From the IMG/VR virus record IMGVR_UViG_3300033153_011579: a stretch of DNA of 64,000 nt; one strand, given 5' to 3'. The position numbers and the translations under genes are program-made. Of the stretch, positions 12,972-34,077 are shown piece by piece; positions within the stretch are counted from its first letter, which is position 1; each line of letters starts with the position of its first letter. Source of the DNA: a virus (taxonomy: Duplodnaviria > Heunggongvirae > Uroviricota > Caudoviricetes). The notes under the pieces are model-generated. The model did no database searches and was not told the origin of the DNA. It saw only the letters and a list, made by a program, of their open reading frames with translations.

Positions 12972-13181
12972 ATGCGAAAATATCGATTTCAGCACGATGA
13001 GGATGGTGACGTGCTGTGGGTCTACATCGCCGGTAACTCCGCGTACCCAGGGGAGCACCGCTTCGATCCACCAGAAGTTTTGGAGGCCTACATCGGTTAC
13101 CTTCGAGCATGTAAAGGTGATCAACTTGATTCTGATGTAGTTATCGCCTGGAAGGACAGTGCTTGGGGTCCGGATGTCTGA
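12972..13181 (+). CDS. hypothetical protein (69 aa)
   Basis: RBS GGAAGGAGAAAAG; the overlapping ORF 12782-13000 has weak GC3 bias and is less likely. Confidence 0.45.
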   Translation: MRKYRFQHDEDGDVLWVYIAGNSAYPGEHRFDPPEVLEAYIGYLRACKGDQLDSDVVIAWKDSAWGPDV

Positions 13182-13196
13182 TGACACGTTCCCTGG
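13180..13196 (+). promoter_or_regulatory. family-2 hairpin variant overlapping the stop (TGATGACACGTTCCCTGG)
   Basis: Sequence at this position. Confidence 0.5.
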
Positions 13197-13232
13197 TACC
13201 CCTATGCCCAAACACTAGGCAGGAGGAATGAG

Positions 13233-13412
13233 ATGTCTGAAAAGAAAGCTGTGGTTCAACGTGTTGTCATCCACGAACTCTTGGATGCAGGTGTGGTGGC
13301 GATCGAAGGACGTGATCTTGTGTTCGAGTCCCCCTGGGACAAGGGCTCAGAGGCGATGATTGCTTTGATGAAGAAAGGCCTCGTCAAAGACGTGGTCCGG
13401 GACAGGGAATGA
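13233..13412 (+). CDS. hypothetical protein (59 aa)
   Basis: RBS AGGAGGAA; the stop TGA lies inside family-2 hairpin 13405-13423. Confidence 0.4.
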   Translation: MSEKKAVVQRVVIHELLDAGVVAIEGRDLVFESPWDKGSEAMIALMKKGLVKDVVRDRE

Positions 13413-13437
13413 CACGTCCCCTGAAAGGAGAAGCCCG

Positions 13438-13713
13438 ATGGGTCAAACAACATCCGACAATCCAGGTGGAGTGAAGTCGCTCTTCGAAGATAACAACTCA
13501 CAAAAAGCTACTGCCTCCACGCTCGCCGGATACCTCGTCGAAGATGGTGCTTGGATGGTATTGCCAGATGGGGACCGCGAGATCACTATTGTGCGGCACA
13601 GAGACTATGGCACGATCATGTATCTCATTGATGGTCCAGGCGAGGATATAAGAAGCGGCGTAGTAAAAACGGTGCGAGAACTCGCTGACGCCATCGCCGT
13701 TGGTGGGGAATGA
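13438..13713 (+). CDS. hypothetical protein (91 aa)
   Basis: Hairpin + AAAGGAGAAG RBS; the stop TGA lies inside family-2 hairpin 13706-13723. Confidence 0.5.
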   Translation: MGQTTSDNPGGVKSLFEDNNSQKATASTLAGYLVEDGAWMVLPDGDREITIVRHRDYGTIMYLIDGPGEDIRSGVVKTVRELADAIAVGGE

Positions 13714-13737
13714 CACGTTCCCTAGGAACTTGAGCTT

Positions 13738-13770
13738 GTAAGAGAATCTCGCATTCTCTGACACGGAGGA
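13738..13770 (+). promoter_or_regulatory. junction element copy immediately downstream of a family-2 hairpin
   Basis: GTAAGAGAATctcgcATTCTCTGACACGGAGGAA. Confidence 0.8.
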
Positions 13771-13774
13771 AAAA

Positions 13775-13954
13775 ATGGACGAACACATGAGATATTTAGG
13801 CTGCCTGAAACTACTTGAGGATTGCTCACCTTACGTACCGGAAGAGATTCGTGAGGGTATCGAGATGGCTCACGACGATGCTGTAGAGGCCAGCAACGGG
13901 ACCTTGCGGGCTCGCAGTGTGCTCGATCGACGAGAGATCGAGGTGGTGACGTAA
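13775..13954 (+). CDS. hypothetical protein (59 aa)
   Basis: Element, then ATG; the stop is the TAA of the next element. Confidence 0.4.
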   Translation: MDEHMRYLGCLKLLEDCSPYVPEEIREGIEMAHDDAVEASNGTLRARSVLDRREIEVVT

Positions 13955-22826: not shown

Positions 22827-23472
22827 CTTCGTCCACCTTCGTGAAGGTTGTTGCCCAGACCCACGGGTTGACGGCCCAACCGAGCCCGCGGGAGAAGTTG
22901 ATCTGGTCCCACAGTATCGCAAACCAGGCGCGCGGGCTATCGTAACTCTTCTCCCAGTCTGGTGGACAGCCCTCGGCGAGGGCGTCCTCGTCGGTGATGA
23001 CGTCGACCCGCTCGAGCCGGATCTTCTTTATGTCGAGGTCGAGTCTCGAATAGATCCGCTTCATGAACAGCGAGGTGGTCCATGGCCCATCGAATTCCGG
23101 GTCGGTCGCGCGCCAGTAGACGCCAGCTCCACCACCGATACTCCAGTGATAAAAGCATTCTTTGACCCAGTAGTGGTCGCCCGAATCCATCCTCGAATAG
23201 ATCCGGTGGCTGGTCCCTTCGAGACCCCACTCATCGTCGGGGCCGATATACGGGAGGTGCAGGTACGGGCCGCCGTTCCCGGCTGGCGAAGGTCCGCCGT
23301 CGGCGTGTGCGTTGTCCCAATCCCAGAGCTCTCGAGGCTTGAGGTGTTTGTACCACGGGCCGCCATCGAAGTAGGAGTTGATGTTCGTGACGACTCGGCG
23401 CGTCTGCGTCTTCCTGCCGGCGATGATCTGCCTGACCATCTCGTCCTTGAAGAGTATCGGTCGCTCGATCAT
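22819..23472 (-). CDS. conserved phage protein (217 aa) with N-terminal ASCH-like motif (tentative)
   Basis: MIERPILFKDEMVRQIIAGRKTQTRRVV resembles a widespread phage N-terminal beta-barrel motif. Confidence 0.45.
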   Translation of the reverse strand: MIERPILFKDEMVRQIIAGRKTQTRRVVTNINSYFDGGPWYKHLKPRELWDWDNAHADGGPSPAGNGGPYLHLPYIGPDDEWGLEGTSHRIYSRMDSGDHYWVKECFYHWSIGGGAGVYWRATDPEFDGPWTTSLFMKRIYSRLDLDIKKIRLERVDVITDEDALAEGCPPDWEKSYDSPRAWFAILWDQINFSRGLGWAVNPWVWATTFTKVDEDG

Positions 23473-24215
23473 TTTGGAAAATCCTGAGGCCACGGATACT
23501 GCGGGGCCTGCTTGATGAGATTGTCCTTGACAAACACCGGAATATGATGGTCGAGGCACCAGAGACGGATATTCCAGGCCGTCTCTGCCGGGCATTCGAA
23601 CGCGTGCGGCCCAGTCATAGCACCGATTACTACCCAGCCGAGTCCGTCGAGGATCTTCGGGTTGAAGTTCTTCTCGACGAGCGGCTCGAGGCTGATCCAG
23701 TGGATGCCGGCCCTGGTCTCGGCGAGGTCATAGAGGCGATCGTCGGCCTCCCTGTCGTTCGTGGCGCTGACTCCCAGGTGGAGGTTATCGGGCCAGTCGC
23801 CGACGGCGAAGTTCAGCGGCCGCTTCGTCAGCATCAAAAACGTGTGCTGCGGCAGGGCGGTGATGGATTCGAGTATCTTTCGCTGGAGACCGGTCGTGTT
23901 GATCGCCACTTCCTTGGGATCGCCGGTCACTACCCAGCTCTGTGGAGACTCGACGCAGCAGAGGTCGGACATCGACCCGAGGAAGACGCGCTTCGTTTTT
24001 TTAGAACGCGAGAGTTTTGCGAATTCCCTCTCCCAGACGTCCAGGTGGACGGCGGGTGTGAAGGGGGCTAACCCCCTTTGTTTTAATCTCCAGTAAGCTG
24101 TTCCCTTCTTTCCTCCCAGTCTCGCCGCGAAGCGTCGCGCGTAGCAGTATTTACAACCGTTCGTGCAGCCGGTGAACGGGTTTATCGAAATATCGCACCA
24201 TTCGATCTTCGACAT
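23469..24215 (-). CDS. phage Gp37/Gp68-family (DUF5131-like) protein with a CxxxCxxC motif
   Basis: MSKIEWCDISINPFTGCTNGCKYCYA matches the family N-terminus. Confidence 0.55.
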   Translation of the reverse strand: MSKIEWCDISINPFTGCTNGCKYCYARRFAARLGGKKGTAYWRLKQRGLAPFTPAVHLDVWEREFAKLSRSKKTKRVFLGSMSDLCCVESPQSWVVTGDPKEVAINTTGLQRKILESITALPQHTFLMLTKRPLNFAVGDWPDNLHLGVSATNDREADDRLYDLAETRAGIHWISLEPLVEKNFNPKILDGLGWVVIGAMTGPHAFECPAETAWNIRLWCLDHHIPVFVKDNLIKQAPQYPWPQDFPK

Positions 24216-24217
24216 CG

Positions 24218-24652
24218 CTACAGCCTTTCCACGACGGCCGCCATGAGGTCGATGACGGTGTCTCCGAGGTCGTCGATCTGAGTTTTGATCTTTTTGAATT
24301 TCTTTTTGAACGTGTTCGCCGAATCTTCGATGTAGCCGACCCGCGACTTGAGCCGATCGATTTTCTTCTCGATATTGCGGTCTCGCCTCTTGGAAGTCTC
24401 GTCGGCCCGCATGACCTGCTCTCGAAAATTCTGGTAGGCCGGACAGTCCGCCCAGCACTCCGGGCTCATTTTTTGCGATTGGGCCCGAGCTCTCGCTATG
24501 TCTTCGCCCGTCTTCTGTAGCGCCAGCTCGAGAGCGTGGTACCTCCCGAGCAGTACCGACTGCCACTGGAAGAGGAAGAACGACCGGTTCAGAGGCGGCA
24601 TTTTCTTCCACTCGTCGAGTTGGATCTCGGTCAGGTTGAGTTTGAAATCCAT
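24218..24652 (-). CDS. hypothetical coiled-coil protein (144 aa)
   Basis: ORF. Confidence 0.45.
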   Translation of the reverse strand: MDFKLNLTEIQLDEWKKMPPLNRSFFLFQWQSVLLGRYHALELALQKTGEDIARARAQSQKMSPECWADCPAYQNFREQVMRADETSKRRDRNIEKKIDRLKSRVGYIEDSANTFKKKFKKIKTQIDDLGDTVIDLMAAVVERL

Positions 24653-26062: not shown

Positions 26063-26266
26063 TCAATCCTCCCTCGTATATTTGTCTAAGAGCGCCTGCT
26101 GCTCCTTGGTGAGTTCTTCTCCGATCTGGGTCAGCATGACGACGTGCCAGAACTCGCACATCTCCCGCTGGGCGTCGTCGCACATTATTTGGAACTCGTC
26201 GGTGATCGTCTCGCCTTCTTCGAGCGGCGGCGCTTTGATCTCGACGGTCCAGGTGATCTCAGTCAC
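26063..26266 (-). CDS. hypothetical acidic protein (67 aa)
   Basis: ORF. Confidence 0.4.
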   Translation of the reverse strand: MTEITWTVEIKAPPLEEGETITDEFQIMCDDAQREMCEFWHVVMLTQIGEELTKEQQALLDKYTRED

Positions 26267-27368
26267 GGATCACCTCGACGATCCCTTTGGCAGTTGGTGA
26301 CAAGCTCGCGAGGACCGCATCGGCTCCGGTGACCTCCCTGATGTGCGCCAGGAACTTTGCGTCGTCGTCCATCTTCAAGATCTCGCCGCCGTCGAAGAAC
26401 CGAAAGTCGTCGTTGATGAGGTCGAGGCACGTGACGGCCAGCTCCGGGGTTTTCGTCATGATGTAGTCGTCTTTGTAGATGGCGTAGCTGAGCAGGTCGA
26501 GATCCAGGAGGGTCTTCCTAAATGTTCCCTGGGGGCCGTCGTCCGGGTTCTGCTCGTGTGGATTGTCCTTGATGTTGCAGGGGACGATGTCGCTCATCGG
26601 ACCTTTCCCATGCCGCGTCTGGTAAGCGCGGGTGACGAGCACGATCTCCGGCTCGTATCCCATCTCGCAAATATTTTTCGACCCGGTGTTCGTCGGAGTG
26701 ACGTATGGAAAAAAACCAAAATTCTGGTCGAGCAGCAGGCCTTGCGACCCTTCCCAGATAACCGTTTCGAACGAATCGATGACCTGCTCGTTCGACATCC
26801 CGATGGCCGCGTTGTGTGTCACCTCGTCGCACGCGACGAAGAAATTTTGGATGATGTAGTCGTCCGGTCTGAAGCCGTAGTATTGATAAAACTGCTCCAT
26901 CTTCATCCGCATTATTCTCGGGTGGAACAGGTCTTCGAACAGCAGGTGATGACCCTCCCGCTCTCTTTTGACGGTCGCGAAGATTCCGACCTCACAGCTG
27001 CCGCCGAAATCGGAATTCCGCTTATTCCACTCGATTTCAAACGGCGTGGTGACCGGGCACCTGTGGTCGACGAGGAGTCGTGGGAAGACTTTTTTCACCA
27101 GCAAGACGTCGAGCTCGTTCATGAGGGCGACGGGGTTGACCGAGCAGTATTTCGACCAGAAGGTCGGGACGCCTCGGAACGACCCGCTACCGAAATGAGA
27201 AAATACGTGAGACCTACCGTCCTCGAGCACCACCTGATGCGCGGCCTGGTGGCCGCCCGAGAACCGCACCACGAGCTCGGCCTTGTTGACGTCACAGAGG
27301 TAGTCGACCAGATGTCCTTTCCCCTCGTCCCCAAAGCCGAGCCCGATGACAGCGATGTGCTTGGTCAC
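26259..27368 (-). CDS. purZ?: adenylosuccinate synthetase homolog, PurA/PurZ family (369 aa; GTG start)
   Basis: The motifs [14 protein letters not shown] and [11 protein letters not shown] correspond to the PurA P-loop (GDEGKGK) and GGHNAGH motifs. [24 protein letters not shown] corresponds to PurA [34 protein letters not shown] corresponds to AYSTRVGAGP, and [14 protein letters not shown] to GATTGRRRRTGWLD. Confidence 0.65.
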   Translation of the reverse strand: [369 protein letters not shown]

Positions 27369-28977: not shown

Positions 28978-29164
28978 TTTTTTGTAACTCCTCGTGAGCA
29001 ATCTTCACTCCGCAGCAGACTTCGTAGTATCCGTCGTCGGTAGCGATCTCGGTCAGGCGGTATCCTAACTCTTCCTCTTCCTCGTGGCACGACCCGCAGC
29101 ATCTGGTCTCGAGACCGAATTTTTGTGCCGCTGCCGCACAGCCGCCGAGGTACTTATCAGCCAT
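28970..29164 (-). CDS. Cys-rich small protein (64 aa)
   Basis: ORF. Confidence 0.4.
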   Translation of the reverse strand: MADKYLGGCAAAAQKFGLETRCCGSCHEEEEELGYRLTEIATDDGYYEVCCGVKIAHEELQKNG

Positions 29165-29477
29165 CGGACTTCTCGGCGTCCGGCTCTGGGAAGTCGTGCT
29201 GAGTACCAACCATGGTGATGGCCACGAACTCGGCGGCTGGACGGTTGTGGAGGGCGCGTGAGGCTTGCACGAACTCCGGCACGATGCGGCCTTTGAAGTT
29301 GTTCAAAACGGTGGTGCAGAGCCCGTTGCCTTTTTCCTCTTGGTTTTCGAAGTTGAACGACGCGACCATGGGGAGCTGGTGCTCATTGCAGATCGCAATG
29401 ATCTTCGTCATCAGCGGGCTGATCTGCTCGTCGTGCACGGCTTCGAGGTCGAAGTGTTCTTGCTCTTCTTTACTCAT
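29157..29477 (-). CDS. hypothetical protein (106 aa)
   Basis: ORF. Confidence 0.45.
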   Translation of the reverse strand: MSKEEQEHFDLEAVHDEQISPLMTKIIAICNEHQLPMVASFNFENQEEKGNGLCTTVLNNFKGRIVPEFVQASRALHNRPAAEFVAITMVGTQHDFPEPDAEKSDG

Positions 29478-29478
29478 C

Positions 29479-30102
29479 TCAAAAGCTCTTCCTACCGGTC
29501 AGCTTCGTGACCAGTTTTCCAATTTCGTCTGGCGTGGGCGCGTCGGGATCCGCCTCGGTCGACCCGGGCAAGAGGTGGGCGTCCTGCGCCGGCCGCAGAC
29601 TCGGGCACAGCACCTGTGCTGCTCCTGCCGTGAGCCGCCCCTTGTCGACCGCGGCCTTGATGGTTGACTCGCGCGAGCTGACGTCGTGCCCCAGGCTGAC
29701 CAGCCACGCGGGCTTCTCGCTCGAGTCTCGCCGGCTCGCGATCTTCTTCCTGTAGATTTCCAAAAACGCAACGCGGGCCGCCACGCGGTCGGTCATCTGG
29801 CGCACCGCCTCGAACGCCTCGGCGATCTCCTGCGTCCAGACGGTCGTGTCGTGCTCGGAGTGCGGGCAGAGGGCCCAGGCCTCTTGTGGGTCCGGCCAGC
29901 CGGTGTCCACCCGCTCGAGGATCGCAGCGAGGGTGAGACGACGGCTCAACTCCCGCCGGCACCGACGAAGCGCGTGCAGCACGACGTCGTCCGGATACAA
30001 GGACAATTCCTCGACCATCTCGGCTGTCGCCGCCTCGGAGAGCTCGGTCGCGCAGATCTCGGCGGTGACCGCCAAGGCGATCACGAGATTACTCTTCTTC
30101 AT
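29479..30102 (-). CDS. hypothetical protein (207 aa) downstream of the replication initiator-like gene
   Basis: ORF; its position suggests a replication accessory or loader role (inference only). Confidence 0.4.
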   Translation of the reverse strand: MKKSNLVIALAVTAEICATELSEAATAEMVEELSLYPDDVVLHALRRCRRELSRRLTLAAILERVDTGWPDPQEAWALCPHSEHDTTVWTQEIAEAFEAVRQMTDRVAARVAFLEIYRKKIASRRDSSEKPAWLVSLGHDVSSRESTIKAAVDKGRLTAGAAQVLCPSLRPAQDAHLLPGSTEADPDAPTPDEIGKLVTKLTGRKSF

Positions 30103-31111
30103 CTTCTTCAGCTTTGTATTTGTCGCGGAGTTTTCTCGCGACGTCCCCCGTGGTCGCCCGGCGGTCCGACGCACGCGCCGCGCCGTCGGTTATCTGTGAC
30201 CCGGTGGCCCACTCGGTCCTCACGGTCTCGGCGTCGACGAGCAGGGTGGGGAGGGCGTGGCCCTTCTTCACGTACCAGCCCTTGTTCATCGAGACGTAGT
30301 GCGCAACGACCTGCTCGGCGTCGGCGGCACCCAGGCGCTCGATGATGCGCCTTATGGCCGTGTTGGCCAGCGCGTTGCGCACAGGCGGAGTGCCGTACCG
30401 GAGCTTATAGGCGGCCGAATAGGCCTCCCAAACTCTCCCTGCTATCACCAGCCTCTCCTCCTTCGGCTTCGCCTTCGGTTTTTTCCTAGCTTCAGGTTTT
30501 TTCTCAACCGGGGTCACGGGCGCTTGCGCGCGTGAAGGATCCGGATCTCTCCCGTCGGGTTCCCCTCCGGGATCCCTTTCTGGATCTGGATCTGCCTCTG
30601 ATCTCTGCCTCTGCTTCTGCCTCTGCCTCTGCATGGCGTTACTATCGTTACTGGGCGTTACAGGGGGGTTACTAGGTGTTACATCAGCGTTACCAAGCGT
30701 TACATCAGCGTTACCATTACCTTTTTCATCCTCTTTTTTCCTCTCCCTGTACCTCCTTACCCTCTCAGCGGTTTTTTCTCGCCTATCGTCCGCCGAGCAC
30801 AGCTGCCGGTACTTCTCGCTGTTCAGCACCTTCCAGCCGCCGTCCACCGGGGCGATCCGCCGGCCCTCGTAATCCGGGGTCCTCGAGTGCTCGTCTGGAC
30901 TCATCAGCCGCTCGAGAGCTTCTTTGCAAAGGTCGAGGTCCACCCGCGCCTCGTGGGAGAGGCCGGGGACGCTCGCGCTCACGATCCCGTCTCTGTCCAT
31001 CAGCGCGAGCATCGTGATCCACACCAACCGGACGTGGTCCTCTTCGCAAACCCAGATCGACGACTGGAGAATCGAACTGTGCAACTTCGTAAAACCTCTG
31101 GTCATGGACAC
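30089..31111 (-). CDS. replication initiator-like protein (340 aa; phage replisome-organizer/O-like N-terminal wHTH, low-complexity linker, C-terminal domain)
   Basis: The N-terminus MTRGFTKLHSSILQSSIW...VRLVWITMLALMDRDGIVSASVPGL resembles phage replication-initiator DNA-binding domains; the gene contains the iteron array. Confidence 0.45.
   Translation of the reverse strand: MSMTRGFTKLHSSILQSSIWVCEEDHVRLVWITMLALMDRDGIVSASVPGLSHEARVDLDLCKEALERLMSPDEHSRTPDYEGRRIAPVDGGWKVLNSEKYRQLCSADDRREKTAERVRRYRERKKEDEKGNGNADVTLGNADVTPSNPPVTPSNDSNAMQRQRQKQRQRSEADPDPERDPGGEPDGRDPDPSRAQAPVTPVEKKPEARKKPKAKPKEERLVIAGRVWEAYSAAYKLRYGTPPVRNALANTAIRRIIERLGAADAEQVVAHYVSMNKGWYVKKGHALPTLLVDAETVRTEWATGSQITDGAARASDRRATTGDVARKLRDKYKAEEDEEE
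30589..30633 (-). repeat. CTGCCTCTG-type tandem repeats (coding the QRQRQKQRQR linker)
   Basis: Sequence at this position. Confidence 0.8.
30635..30716 (-). repeat. eight (C/G/T)GTTAC iterons at 9-11-bp (helical) spacing inside the initiator gene, followed by a T/C-rich tract (30721-30780); candidate origin of replication
   Basis: Copies at 30637, 30646, 30656, 30667, 30677, 30688, 30698 and 30709. Confidence 0.55.
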
Positions 31112-31130
31112 CAGTGTCCTTTCTTGAACT

Positions 31131-31382
31131 TCAGCTTTCAGATCCGTAGGTGTCTTTCATGTATTGACGAAGCAACGTCTCGAGCTTCCCGAGCTCCCGC
31201 TTCGACGTCGTTACCGCCGCCGGCCAGTTTGACCAGAACTCCTTTAGCTCCTCGAAGAGCAGCACACTCGCCGGCGACCCCCGGTTCACGATGCGCAGCA
31301 GCACGGTCAAAATTCGCAGGTTTGTTTTCGTCAGCATGGCCTTGAACGCCATCGCCGTATCGATCTTGTCCATGAACCCCAT
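31131..31382 (-). CDS. hypothetical protein (83 aa)
   Basis: ORF. Confidence 0.45.
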   Translation of the reverse strand: MGFMDKIDTAMAFKAMLTKTNLRILTVLLRIVNRGSPASVLLFEELKEFWSNWPAAVTTSKRELGKLETLLRQYMKDTYGSES

Positions 31383-31390
31383 GCGTCACC

Positions 31391-31651
31391 TCACCCTACC
31401 GGCCGCTTGGATCCGGTATCTCCGTAAATACTGATCGACGGCATGATGATCACCGACCAGTTCTGCCGGTAGTCGATCCCACCATCGCGCCACTTGTACT
31501 GAAAACCCCACGCCACATTCGGGCTGTTGAGCATCTCGGCCTGCATCGACTCGTTGTCGATCAGCGCGGCCATCGTCTGATGCGGCCCGAACCTCCCGAC
31601 CAGCTCGTCGACCAGCGGCTGGAGCTCAGCGTCCTTCGTTGCCAACCCCAT
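31391..31651 (-). CDS. hypothetical protein (86 aa)
   Basis: ORF. Confidence 0.45.
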   Translation of the reverse strand: MGLATKDAELQPLVDELVGRFGPHQTMAALIDNESMQAEMLNSPNVAWGFQYKWRDGGIDYRQNWSVIIMPSISIYGDTGSKRPVG

Positions 31652-31833
31652 CAGGAGACCTCCCCACCGAGGGTTTTGACCTTGCCCTCGATCAGGATGA
31701 TCCTCTTCGCCTGCTTCTCGTTGACCTTCTTGTACTCGCGGATCGCGGTGTCCCGCTGGTCGACCTGCTCCTTGAGGTTGGCGATCTTCTCGCGCTGGTT
31801 TTTTGCAAGCTTCTCTCTCGTGTTCATCGACAT
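31651..31833 (-). CDS. small basic coiled-coil protein (60 aa)
   Basis: ORF. Confidence 0.4.
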   Translation of the reverse strand: MSMNTREKLAKNQREKIANLKEQVDQRDTAIREYKKVNEKQAKRIILIEGKVKTLGGEVS

Positions 31834-31834
31834 C

Positions 31835-32173
31835 TCAGTCCTCCTCTGCGATCCGCTTGGCCACGCACAACTCCTCGGCCTGGCGCAGGGCCTTGGTCAT
31901 CGCCACGGAGTGGTCCAACTTGCCCATCTCCTTTAACGCCTGGATTAGTCCGTACTTCGATTGGGACACGCACACCGCCGCGTGCTTGCACGCCGACAAC
32001 TGGACGTCGAGGTCGTGCATCCCGGCTACCAGGGCCGCCACGTCGTCCTCGAGCGCGTCCACGTCGGCCTTGGCATTTTTTAAAACGTTCATGGTGACAC
32101 CAGCGTAGGTGGCCGAGGCAACCGCCAGCAAGACCATCACCGACAGCGCAACCTGTAAACTCGATCTCGACAT
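31835..32173 (-). CDS. secreted/periplasmic small protein (112 aa, signal peptide)
   Basis: MSRSSLQVALSVMVLLAVASATYA. Confidence 0.45.
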   Translation of the reverse strand: MSRSSLQVALSVMVLLAVASATYAGVTMNVLKNAKADVDALEDDVAALVAGMHDLDVQLSACKHAAVCVSQSKYGLIQALKEMGKLDHSVAMTKALRQAEELCVAKRIAEED

Positions 32174-32174
32174 C

Positions 32175-32462
32175 TCAGTCCTCCTCGTTTCCTTTGCTGA
32201 CCGACGGACACCCAATCATGATGAGCTCCGCCCTGATCTCGGCCTTCAACTTGATCTTTCGGAGTAGCTCGCTGAGAGGATCACAGGCTAACCCAATCAA
32301 AAAGCTTTTTTCCGGGTGGTCGACGAGAATTATGGCGAGACCAGAGATCGACTTCAGCGCATGGTCGGCCAGCGGGCCCACCATCGGGTCGTCGGCGATC
32401 ATCGCTAACGCCTCCTCGGTCAACTCCGGTAGGTCCCGTCCCTTGATGTCGTCCAGACTCAT
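32175..32462 (-). CDS. hypothetical protein (95 aa)
   Basis: ORF. Confidence 0.45.
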   Translation of the reverse strand: MSLDDIKGRDLPELTEEALAMIADDPMVGPLADHALKSISGLAIILVDHPEKSFLIGLACDPLSELLRKIKLKAEIRAELIMIGCPSVSKGNEED

Positions 32463-32836
32463 AGTGAGGCCTCCTCACTTTCTGCGCAGGCCAGCCAGCG
32501 CTCCCACAGGTCGTCGTTCGCTCTCGACAGGTCGCGCACTATCTCCGCGCACTCCTCCCGACACGTCTCGATGGTCGGGGCGGCTGCCGCCTCGATGCAC
32601 AGCCGGAACTCTCGCGAGCGACACTCTTCGGACTGAGTCCTCGAGTAGTCGTGGGCCGAGCCGGGGCAGATCTCGTCGACCACCTCACCACACGTCTTCT
32701 CGATCGGCTCCGGGCAGTCGGTCTCGCACCGAGGAACGAAGAACGTTGCGATGACACAGCCGACCGCGATGCCGATGATCATGAACACGATGGCCAGCGC
32801 GATCATGCCGCCCTCTGTCAGTTTTCCGTCAGCCAT
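32459..32836 (-). CDS. membrane-anchored acidic Cys-rich protein (125 aa; paralog of 8684-9052)
   Basis: TM helix then Cys-rich domain with a shared C-terminal motif. Confidence 0.5.
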   Translation of the reverse strand: MADGKLTEGGMIALAIVFMIIGIAVGCVIATFFVPRCETDCPEPIEKTCGEVVDEICPGSAHDYSRTQSEECRSREFRLCIEAAAAPTIETCREECAEIVRDLSRANDDLWERWLACAESEEASL

Positions 32837-32839
32837 GAC

Positions 32840-33718
32840 CTACCTCTTGGCCGGCGACACTACAGGAATCGAGCTCCCCTCGCCCGTGGCGATGACCTTG
32901 TCGCCGGGCCCGACGCGTTTATAAAGCGTCTTCTTGGCTTCGATCTCTCGCAGCGCAAGGTACTTGTCGGTGAGCGCGCCCCCCATGATCTTCACGTAGA
33001 CCGCCTCGGACTCCGCCTCGGCCGTCCTGACCGCCTTCATCTTCTCGGCGACCTTCAGCCGGTTGTCGGCCTGGAGCAGCTCCATCGCCTGCTTCGCCTT
33101 CTCCTCGTCGATCTCGATCTCTCGCCGGCGCTTCTTTTCGACGGCCTTGGTGATGACCTCCGGGTAGTCGAAGTTCGAGGTGACGACGCTCACGAGCTGC
33201 ATCGGCGTCCCCTTCAGCGAGGCGTGCAGCTGCTTGTGAATCTCTTTCTGGATCGCGTCCCGGTTTTCTCTGATCTGCGTCGTCGAGTATTTGCTCACGA
33301 TGCCACGCGCGATCGACCGAGCCTCGGGCTTCACGTACACGTTGTACAAGCTCTCGAACCCGAGTGCCGCCGCGTCGTACTCATCCCATCGCTCCATCTT
33401 CGACCCCTGGCGATTCAGGAGCTCCTTGATCGCAGATCCGTCTGCCGAGACCAGCCGCGTCCTCGTCACCAAATTGAACCTGAAGTTCAGGTCGTCCGAG
33501 CACAGGACGCTCATCTTCTCCTCGATGGCGTCCTCCTTCGTGTCGACCAGCTGCATCGAGTCGCGACCCCAGCACCCGTGGTGACCGGGTTGTAACACCT
33601 CGCCCGTCAGCCCTCCCGGGGTCTGTACCATCCCCACCCAGCCCGCAGGAACTACCTCGTTGCAACCGATGACCAAAAACGCCGCCAGGAACATTCCCAA
33701 AACACATGCTGATTTCAT
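32840..33718 (-). CDS. SPFH/band-7 (prohibitin/HflK-like) domain lipoprotein
   Basis: Lipobox LVIGC; VVTSNFDYPEVITKAVEKKRRREIEIDEEKAKQAMELLQADNRLKVAEK... fits the SPFH core + coiled coil. Confidence 0.55.
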   Translation of the reverse strand: MKSACVLGMFLAAFLVIGCNEVVPAGWVGMVQTPGGLTGEVLQPGHHGCWGRDSMQLVDTKEDAIEEKMSVLCSDDLNFRFNLVTRTRLVSADGSAIKELLNRQGSKMERWDEYDAAALGFESLYNVYVKPEARSIARGIVSKYSTTQIRENRDAIQKEIHKQLHASLKGTPMQLVSVVTSNFDYPEVITKAVEKKRRREIEIDEEKAKQAMELLQADNRLKVAEKMKAVRTAEAESEAVYVKIMGGALTDKYLALREIEAKKTLYKRVGPGDKVIATGEGSSIPVVSPAKR

Positions 33719-34077
33719 TGCCGAGCCTCTCTTTCTTCGGTGGTGAAGTCCACCTTGGAGCCACCGCGAACGCACGCGATGACTTGTTTGAGTTCTGCGA
33801 TCACAAACCGACCGAGACCGATCCTGTCGAGGTCGATGATGAGGGGCGGTGTCGTGTAGCCACGATCGTTGATCCTCACACGGAAGTTAACCCAGTCGCC
33901 GACCTTCACCCTGGTAAACCACCCGCGCACGGCGACCACCTCCCCGCGGAGGGTGTTTGTTTTCTCCGAGAATTTATCTCCGCAGTCGTCGGCGTGGATC
34001 CGCACGATCATCGACTTTCTCGGCATCGACGTGACGATGCCCTTGATGTCCTCCCTCTGAATTTCTCTATCGGCCAT
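33715..34077 (-). CDS. hypothetical protein (120 aa, possibly OB-fold-like)
   Basis: ORF; ATGA overlap. Confidence 0.45.
   Translation of the reverse strand: MADREIQREDIKGIVTSMPRKSMIVRIHADDCGDKFSEKTNTLRGEVVAVRGWFTRVKVGDWVNFRVRINDRGYTTPPLIIDLDRIGLGRFVIAELKQVIACVRGGSKVDFTTEEREARQ

Follow-up and report, generated by a model that had tools for sequence, protein, structure and literature searches.

A gene for an initiator-like protein of 340 residues lies at positions 30089..31111 on the minus strand of the window, by which we mean the whole 64-kb stretch of viral DNA (64,000 nucleotides) that was analysed. The list of open reading frames places its start at a GTG at 31111, and the ATG at 31105 is also possible. 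Followed along the coding strand, the gene comprises an N-terminal winged-helix domain (aa 1-97; 30821..31111), a long basic helix (aa 98-131; 30719..30820) whose coding sequence holds a T/C-rich tract and a local GC minimum, an array of eight short repeats or iterons of the form GTAAC(GC), 9-11 bp apart (30636..30714), a hexamer run with nine copies of CAGA (TCTG on the plus strand) at a period of 6 with one 7-nt step (30579..30631), and a C-terminal helical domain presumed to be a partner-binding module (aa 216-339; 30092..30466). All these features are on the minus strand, as is the next gene downstream (29479..30174), which overlaps the initiator gene and encodes a protein of 231 aa that belongs to phrog_6028, a group whose function is not annotated.

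The initiator-like protein, its family and its neighbours

An AlphaFold model of the 340-aa protein, built on an alignment of 120 sequences and reaching a mean pLDDT of 80.7, contains two folded parts, an N-domain at aa 12-131 and a C-domain at aa 217-339 (pLDDT 90-95). The N-domain is made of a single winged helix within aa 12-97, with the topology H1-S1-H2-H3-wing, and of the long basic helix at 98-131 that follows it. Residues 132-215 are modelled with low confidence except for one helix at 156-172, and the eight phased repeats encode aa 133-158, which confirms the placement of the array, in the preliminary description, in the part of the gene that codes for the linker between the folded domains. 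That description had also likened the N-terminal domain to those of replisome organizers and O-type initiators. A generic winged-helix fold is indeed predicted, but a resemblance in sequence is not borne out: the Pfam scan of the window protein at E<=1 returned only a spurious match to SRP-alpha_N, and profile searches of NCBIfam and of PDB sequences gave no relative. Among the PHROGs, phrog_11527 (function not annotated) matches the C-domain at 5e-18, and the window protein as such has weak matches to a 'replication initiation protein' (1.2e-5) and to a DnaD-like loader (0.024). Other members of the family give stronger matches, to PHROGs whose names include replication initiation protein, DnaD-like loader, O-like and primosomal protein; the C-terminal modules, which vary among members, are the most plausible source of these matches.

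Judged by these searches, the protein family is very large and uncharacterised, being without a Pfam or NCBIfam model. An indexed search gave 915 homologs. In an exhaustive phmmer search the N-domain matched 7,249 cluster representatives (E<=1e-10), and the best 150 of these matches have the domain at the N-terminus with few exceptions. A tblastn search with the N-domain found no match in 50,697 records of cultured phages. When the full-length relative P0072, N-domain included, was used as the query, tblastn gave matches to the C-terminal module only in the same phage records and nothing in 72,556 plasmids; the C-terminal module of P0072 is common to annotated replication initiation proteins of cultured phages. 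Further, blastn of positions 29000-33000 against phages gave only short matches, in the C-domain region, to two Ralstonia phages. The host labels in the family records include Acidobacteria, Verrucomicrobia, Planctomycetes and Xanthomonadales, and a few members come from prophages of isolates, namely Solimonas terrae, Lysobacter koreensis and a Thermomonas sp. Full-text searching of the literature gave no account of either the family or phage iterons of the GTAAC type, and returned lambda and plasmid precedents only.

In 120 relatives, the gene directly downstream encodes a DnaB_C helicase in 37 cases, an IstB/DnaC-like loader in 9 and a DnaG zinc ribbon (primase) in 4. The locus of P0072 (L159) provides an example, in which a DnaB_C gene follows the homolog directly and genes for RecT and a DUF3799 protein lie some 7 kb upstream. 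The overlapping 231-aa protein of the window occupies the position that the DnaB, DnaC-like or primase gene takes in relatives, and it is a candidate helicase-recruiting partner. The C-domain of the window protein and this 231-aa protein recur together only in three loci (L001-L003), and such co-inheritance fits an O/P-like pair. In the window, the neighbours of the initiator gene include no recognisable helicase, loader or primase, and among the 122 window ORFs of at least 150 aa Pfam finds no helicase, primase or DNA polymerase; probably the phage depends on host replication proteins, or else the window represents an incomplete genome.

Several further genes were recorded in the window and in related loci. 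An adenylosuccinate-synthetase-like gene lies at 26259-27368 on the minus strand (PF00709, 1e-39; phrog_1211, 1e-51). The NCBIfam scores, 110 bits for PurA and 39 bits for PurZ, are both far under the cut-offs and do not assign it to either; if it were PurZ, the phage DNA may contain 2-aminoadenine, in which case the AT content would say little about melting. In the same early-gene block, a minus-strand gene at 23469-24611 encodes a DUF5131 protein whose radical-SAM signal is weak, and another locus (L158) has a DUF5131 gene at 13146-13910, about 4 kb from the initiator homolog on its downstream side. At 32840-33775 the minus strand encodes an SPFH/Band 7 protein (phrog_200, 'lipoprotein'), 1.7 kb upstream of the initiator gene and in the same transcriptional direction; the window has one Band_7 Pfam match, its member not identified. 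Moreover, two initiator homologs (L136 and L137) are located on a single 60-kb MAG contig, JAOTVV010000018.1, and could represent two prophages or a duplicated replication module.

Repeats conserved at the level of DNA

On the plus strand of the window, a motif search places GTTAC at 30638, 30647, 30657, 30668, 30678, 30689, 30699 and 30710, in agreement with the eight repeats reported earlier and with their spacings of 9, 10, 11, 10, 11, 10 and 11 bp (30638-30714), and over 30635-30714 Tandem Repeats Finder detects a period of 21 bp. The total of GTTAC motifs in the 64-kb window is ordinary and shows no overall over-representation (47 on both strands, against 47.8 in shuffles). The density within the array is 8 in 77 bp, against about 0.03 expected on the plus strand; no second cluster of the motif exists elsewhere in the 64-kb window, and all five of the window's copies of the extended motif GCGTTAC fall inside the array. 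A 12-mer had been said to be repeated exactly; the repetition holds, but the repeated sequence, ACATCAGCGTTACC, is 14 nt long, and it forms part of an exact 18-nt repeat, GTTACATCAGCGTTACCA, with copies at 30678-30695 and 30699-30716. The motif reads GTAAC on the coding strand, where it is translated in two frames within one and the same protein, alternating between NGT-AAC (Gly-Asn or Ser-Asn) and GTA-ACN (Val-Thr), and the encoded peptide reads GNGNADVTLGNADVTPSNPPVTPSNDSN.

A scan for tRNAs and an Rfam scan of 29000-32500 gave no match, which rules out a known RNA element as the explanation of the repeats, and a promoter and terminator scan of 29000-33000 gave nothing relevant. An exact 11-nt sequence, GGTTTTTTCTC, is present at 30495-30505 and again at 30770-30780, 275 bp apart, and these copies bracket the iteron and hexamer core; the pair may be due to chance.

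The comparison with relatives covered 80 IMG/VR loci and 77 genome or MAG loci, which yielded about 145 non-identical linkers. Right after the basic helix, the majority of relatives have 3-10 copies of GTAACG(C), at distances that alternate between 11 and 10 bp. Phased chains were defined as at least three copies of one 5-mer at 9-12 bp, within 150 nt after the N-domain, and were sought in 129 non-identical loci; 102 of the 129 (79%) have such a chain and 72 have one of at least four copies. The controls, for at least three copies, gave chains in 7/258 N-domain windows, 5/129 C-terminal windows and 29/640 random windows (3-5%). Loci that lack GTAAC have a different short motif in its place, phased alike, namely GTCAC(G), GTCAAC(A), GTGGA(C/A), GTAGA(C), GTCAGC, (T)CCGAC, TCGAAG, TAAGCC, GTCCC or GTTAA, which makes 11 iteron classes with GTAAC included.

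The loci of the GTAAC type (n=41) hold 215 units, with a spacing of 10 bp in 64 cases and of 11 bp in 78. The units are divided between two frames, 104 against 111, and in both frames a G follows the GTAAC core in 95% of them. The core, GTAACG(C), is 6-7 bp long and asymmetric, and is read either as Val-Thr or as Gly/Ser/Cys/Arg-Asn, the residue that precedes Asn being coded by an NGT codon (AGT, CGT, GGT or TGT). The linker encodes Val-Thr as GTAACG in 106 of 139 cases, compared with 8 of 76 in the remainder of these ORFs. In arrays anchored solely on their two outer copies, the four inner cores hardly vary at any of the three codon positions, and the 3-5-nt spacers between them are variable. 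The orientation of the array is mixed, or reverse only, in some loci (L001, L002, L005/6 and L010). Because the core is kept in two frames and its synonymous positions are fixed, the repeats are, on the evidence of these alignments, conserved as DNA and not as peptide.

The second element, the hexamer run, had been described as CTGCCTCTG tandem repeats at 30589-30633. Repeats are present there, but their actual form and extent are those of a run of nine TCTG hexamers at 30579-30631, with spacings of 6, 6, 6, 7, 6, 6, 6 and 6; owing to the one 7-nt step, the run is translated in two frames (QRQRQKQRQ, then ADPDPE). A period-6 run is found in 99 of 136 loci and starts at a median of 12.5 bp past the last iteron. 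Of CAGANN type on the coding strand in 73 of these loci, it is inverted in 8 and of another kind in 18, some of the last group still being based on CAGA or TCTG. In the CCGAC and TCGAAG iteron classes, which belong to the most distant of the relatives compared, runs of the CCAACA, CCAGCT or TCAACA type stand in place of CAGANN, and the orientation of the run is independent of the iteron class. Across the family, (CAGANN)n is translated in three frames and from either strand, and the resulting peptides are AE/AD/TD repeats, QK/QR/QI repeats or, from the other strand, SA/SV/PL repeats.

Near-identical loci differ in their number of hexamer units (L005/L006; L011/L012/L020/L008; L032/L042/L044/L050), a length variation of the microsatellite kind within a replication gene. 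Some of these loci also differ in the bases between iterons, with the iteron cores constant.

It could be argued that the repeats constitute slippage-prone, low-complexity linker coding, under selection for the peptide at most and devoid of function as DNA. The 21-bp period, a multiple of three, the predicted disorder of the region and a hexamer copy number that varies between near-identical loci (L005/L006, L011/L020) would all fit such a linker. However, the same 6-7-nt core yields different peptides in two frames, synonymous third positions are fixed (GTA for Val, ACG for Thr), orientation is mixed in L001, L002 and L005, the hexamers occur in three frames and on both strands, and the alternation of 10 and 11 bp has no rationale at the level of the peptide. 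The frame and codon statistics largely refute a purely coding explanation, to which we attach almost no credence.

Co-variation with the protein and the candidate origin

The iteron class co-varies with residues of the protein. Association with the iteron class is highest at residues 114, 117, 118, 113 and 121 of the basic helix, and lower at 43 and 45 in the first strand and at 94 in the wing. In a stratified test, pairs of sequences were binned by their identity across residues 8-104. Pairs of one class then showed an excess identity of 0.53 at residue 117, 0.33 at 106, 0.29 at 120, 0.23 at 114 and 0.20 at 43; residue 109 was also among the top positions, and the median over positions was 0.01. 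The class-tracking residues on the basic helix (106, 109, 113/114, 117, 118 and 120/121) lie on roughly one face of it, which suggests that this helix probably reads the iteron, and T114 and R117 of the window protein fit the GTAAC class. The co-variation of class and residue is correlative, and shared ancestry is a confounder for which the stratification corrects in part.

Phased short repeats inside genes form some pac sites, as in SPP1 and P22, and the array might likewise be the target of some other DNA-binding protein (a terminase small subunit at a pac site, a partition protein or a repressor) that happens to be located here by chance. In the loci examined, however, the array is always found with this N-domain, irrespective of which C-domain and neighbours are present, its sequence varies in step with residues of this very protein, and the neighbours are replication genes and not packaging genes; a foreign binding protein is very improbable in this light.

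On the side of the array opposite to the hexamer run lies the T/C-rich tract at 30721-30780, which the preliminary description had taken for an easily melted element. The tract is real, with 87% pyrimidine on the plus strand and a GC content of 45% against 59.5% for the whole window, but the role given to it has to be downgraded. It encodes aa 111-130 of the Arg/Lys/Glu-rich basic helix, REKTAERVRRYRERKKEDEK, and its purine/pyrimidine bias thus has a coding explanation. The reading of the tract as a dedicated unwinding element loses weight, since it codes for a conserved helix and is not the flank conserved family-wide; that flank is the hexamer run. Measured over 40 bp, the GC fraction reaches a local minimum of 0.33-0.35 at ~30700-30740, a value among the lowest 0.5% for the window, and the hexamer run of the window has 57% GC. 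Family-wide, the 60 bp past the array are purine-rich on the coding strand and have a GC content 7-11 points under the locus mean. The GC lows are therefore on opposite sides, the window minimum in the sequence that codes for the basic helix and the family dip over the hexamer run.

The GC skew of the window is positive to ~16 kb, negative to ~37 kb and near zero to ~57 kb; the AT skew changes sign along with it, and both match the blocks of gene orientation. As skew follows gene orientation, it is weak evidence either way. The cumulative GC skew, which had been put forward as a check on the origin and was run on the window, has its extremes at ~16 kb and ~44 kb and no sign change at 30.6 kb, and it speaks neither for nor against the site.

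The reading we favour, and consider probable, is that 30579-30740 is a phage replication origin embedded in its own initiator gene, in the manner of lambda; binding, unwinding, helicase recruitment and initiation at the site are what we infer from the sequence comparisons. The lambdoid-like layout proposed at the outset, with iterons inside the initiator gene, is supported by the conservation at the DNA level, by the phased arrays of 79% of relatives, by the co-variation and by helicase synteny.

Iteron arrays serve control roles in iteron plasmids, and the iterons might be binding sites of the encoded protein for control alone, be it autorepression or roadblock of the replication operon, initiator titration, or handcuffing and incompatibility, with initiation taking place elsewhere. 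A skew without inflection at the site would agree with this, as would the lack of a clearly AT-rich unwinding element common to the family, in which the GC dip amounts to just 7-11 points. On the other hand, the motif forms no other cluster in the 64-kb window, which leaves the window without a further candidate set; the lambda ori has the same layout, with iterons and then a conserved flank inside the linker (PMC7466680); and roles in control and as an origin can coexist. An array that serves control only is in our view unlikely.

If the site is an origin, as we favour, monomers with a winged helix and a long basic helix would bind the eight GTAAC(GC) iterons. Since the spacing of 10-11 bp puts all sites on one side of the DNA helix, a cooperative array is possible, and the bound monomers may form one nucleoprotein array resembling the lambda O-some. 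This array would then distort and open its neighbour, either the hexamer run (30579-30631) or the low-GC, strand-asymmetric stretch at ~30700-30740. The C-domain, probably together with the co-inherited 231-aa protein, would bring in a DnaB-type helicase, and because none is detectable in the window, this helicase would be that of the host.

A bolder proposal, which we regard as possible but rather doubtful, is that the basic helix on its winged helix acts as a reading head for iterons of 5-7 bp and that the hexamer run acts as a sequence-specific register. If the former is true, the code at residues ~106-121, chiefly 114 and 117, would be simple enough for the iteron to be predicted from the protein. 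If the latter is true, the initiator array or the helicase would engage one strand on (RCAGAN)n, and this repeat would be a six-nucleotide counterpart of the DnaA-trios or of the RK2 13-mers and not a passive AT-rich melting tract.

That an origin can lie within the gene of its initiator is a principle familiar since lambda. What is new here, as far as the libraries and the literature searched are concerned, is the protein family, the very short phased iterons, the apparent specificity of the basic helix and the hexamer element. The very large family, made up of uncultured phages and prophages, has neither a curated protein model nor an origin annotation, and the locus offers it a concrete candidate for both origin and initiator. 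It would also be a clear natural case of dual coding, in which one stretch of DNA is constrained as a protein-binding array and is translated in whatever frame results. Moreover, the iteron classes, paired with a few helix residues, could provide a ready-made specificity table, and such a table could be leveraged for compatible or orthogonal replicons and for the prediction of origins in metagenomic phage genomes.

Comparison with known origins and initiators

The initiators of iteron plasmids (RepE, RepA, pi and TrfA, and the staphylococcal RepA_N proteins) differ from the window protein, which has no Rep_3 or RepA_N sequence signal in Pfam. Membership of these families was rejected on that ground, on the single winged helix of the model against two in Rep_3, and on the failure of P0072 to match plasmids. 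Plasmid iterons are 17-22 bp long and lie outside the rep gene.

With SPP1 G38P, the replisome organizers and the DnaD-like initiators, the family shares a modular build and a gene order in which a helicase or its loader takes part; gene 38 of SPP1 contains oriL. A minority of family members match PHROGs of the replisome-organizer or DnaD-like kind, most likely within their variable C-terminal modules. Unlike replisome organizers, the window protein has no Phage_rep_org_N match in Pfam, and its match to a DnaD-like PHROG reaches only E=0.024.

The DnaA-trio, which Richardson et al. reportedly described in 2016, is said to consist of short repeats of fixed period right beside the sites where the initiator binds double-stranded DNA. 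The window resembles such origins in that a short element of fixed period adjoins what are predicted to be double-stranded initiator sites. It differs from them in the period, which is 6 and not 3, and in the orientation of the hexamers relative to the iterons, which is not fixed; moreover, the initiator of the window is without the AAA+ domain of DnaA.

Lambda has several features in common with the window and differs in others. Its iterons are about 19 bp long and have dyad symmetry, whereas those of the window are 5-7 bp long, asymmetric and one helical turn apart. Specificity here apparently resides on the basic helix after the winged helix, and the flank is a conserved hexamer microsatellite in place of a plain AT-rich tract. 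Membership of the lambda O family (Pfam Phage_rep_O) was rejected, as Pfam, NCBIfam and PDB-sequence searches gave no profile match, and the window protein is kept out of that family because of this failed sequence test. In the lambdoid phages, the ori lies inside the initiator gene, in the part that codes for the linker, where the addition of iterons adds residues to the protein, and lambda has 4-6 iterons (PMC7466680). As in these origins (ori-lambda in gene O, P22 gene 18 and the Stx phages), the initiator gene of the window would hold its origin in the part coding for the inter-domain linker, with several direct repeats as putative initiator-binding sites; a strand-asymmetric stretch of lower GC adjoins them and may correspond to the easily unwound tract of lambda. 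The likeness extends to the predicted division of the protein into a DNA-binding N-domain and a helicase-recruiting C-domain, and perhaps to the gene directly downstream, a candidate partner.
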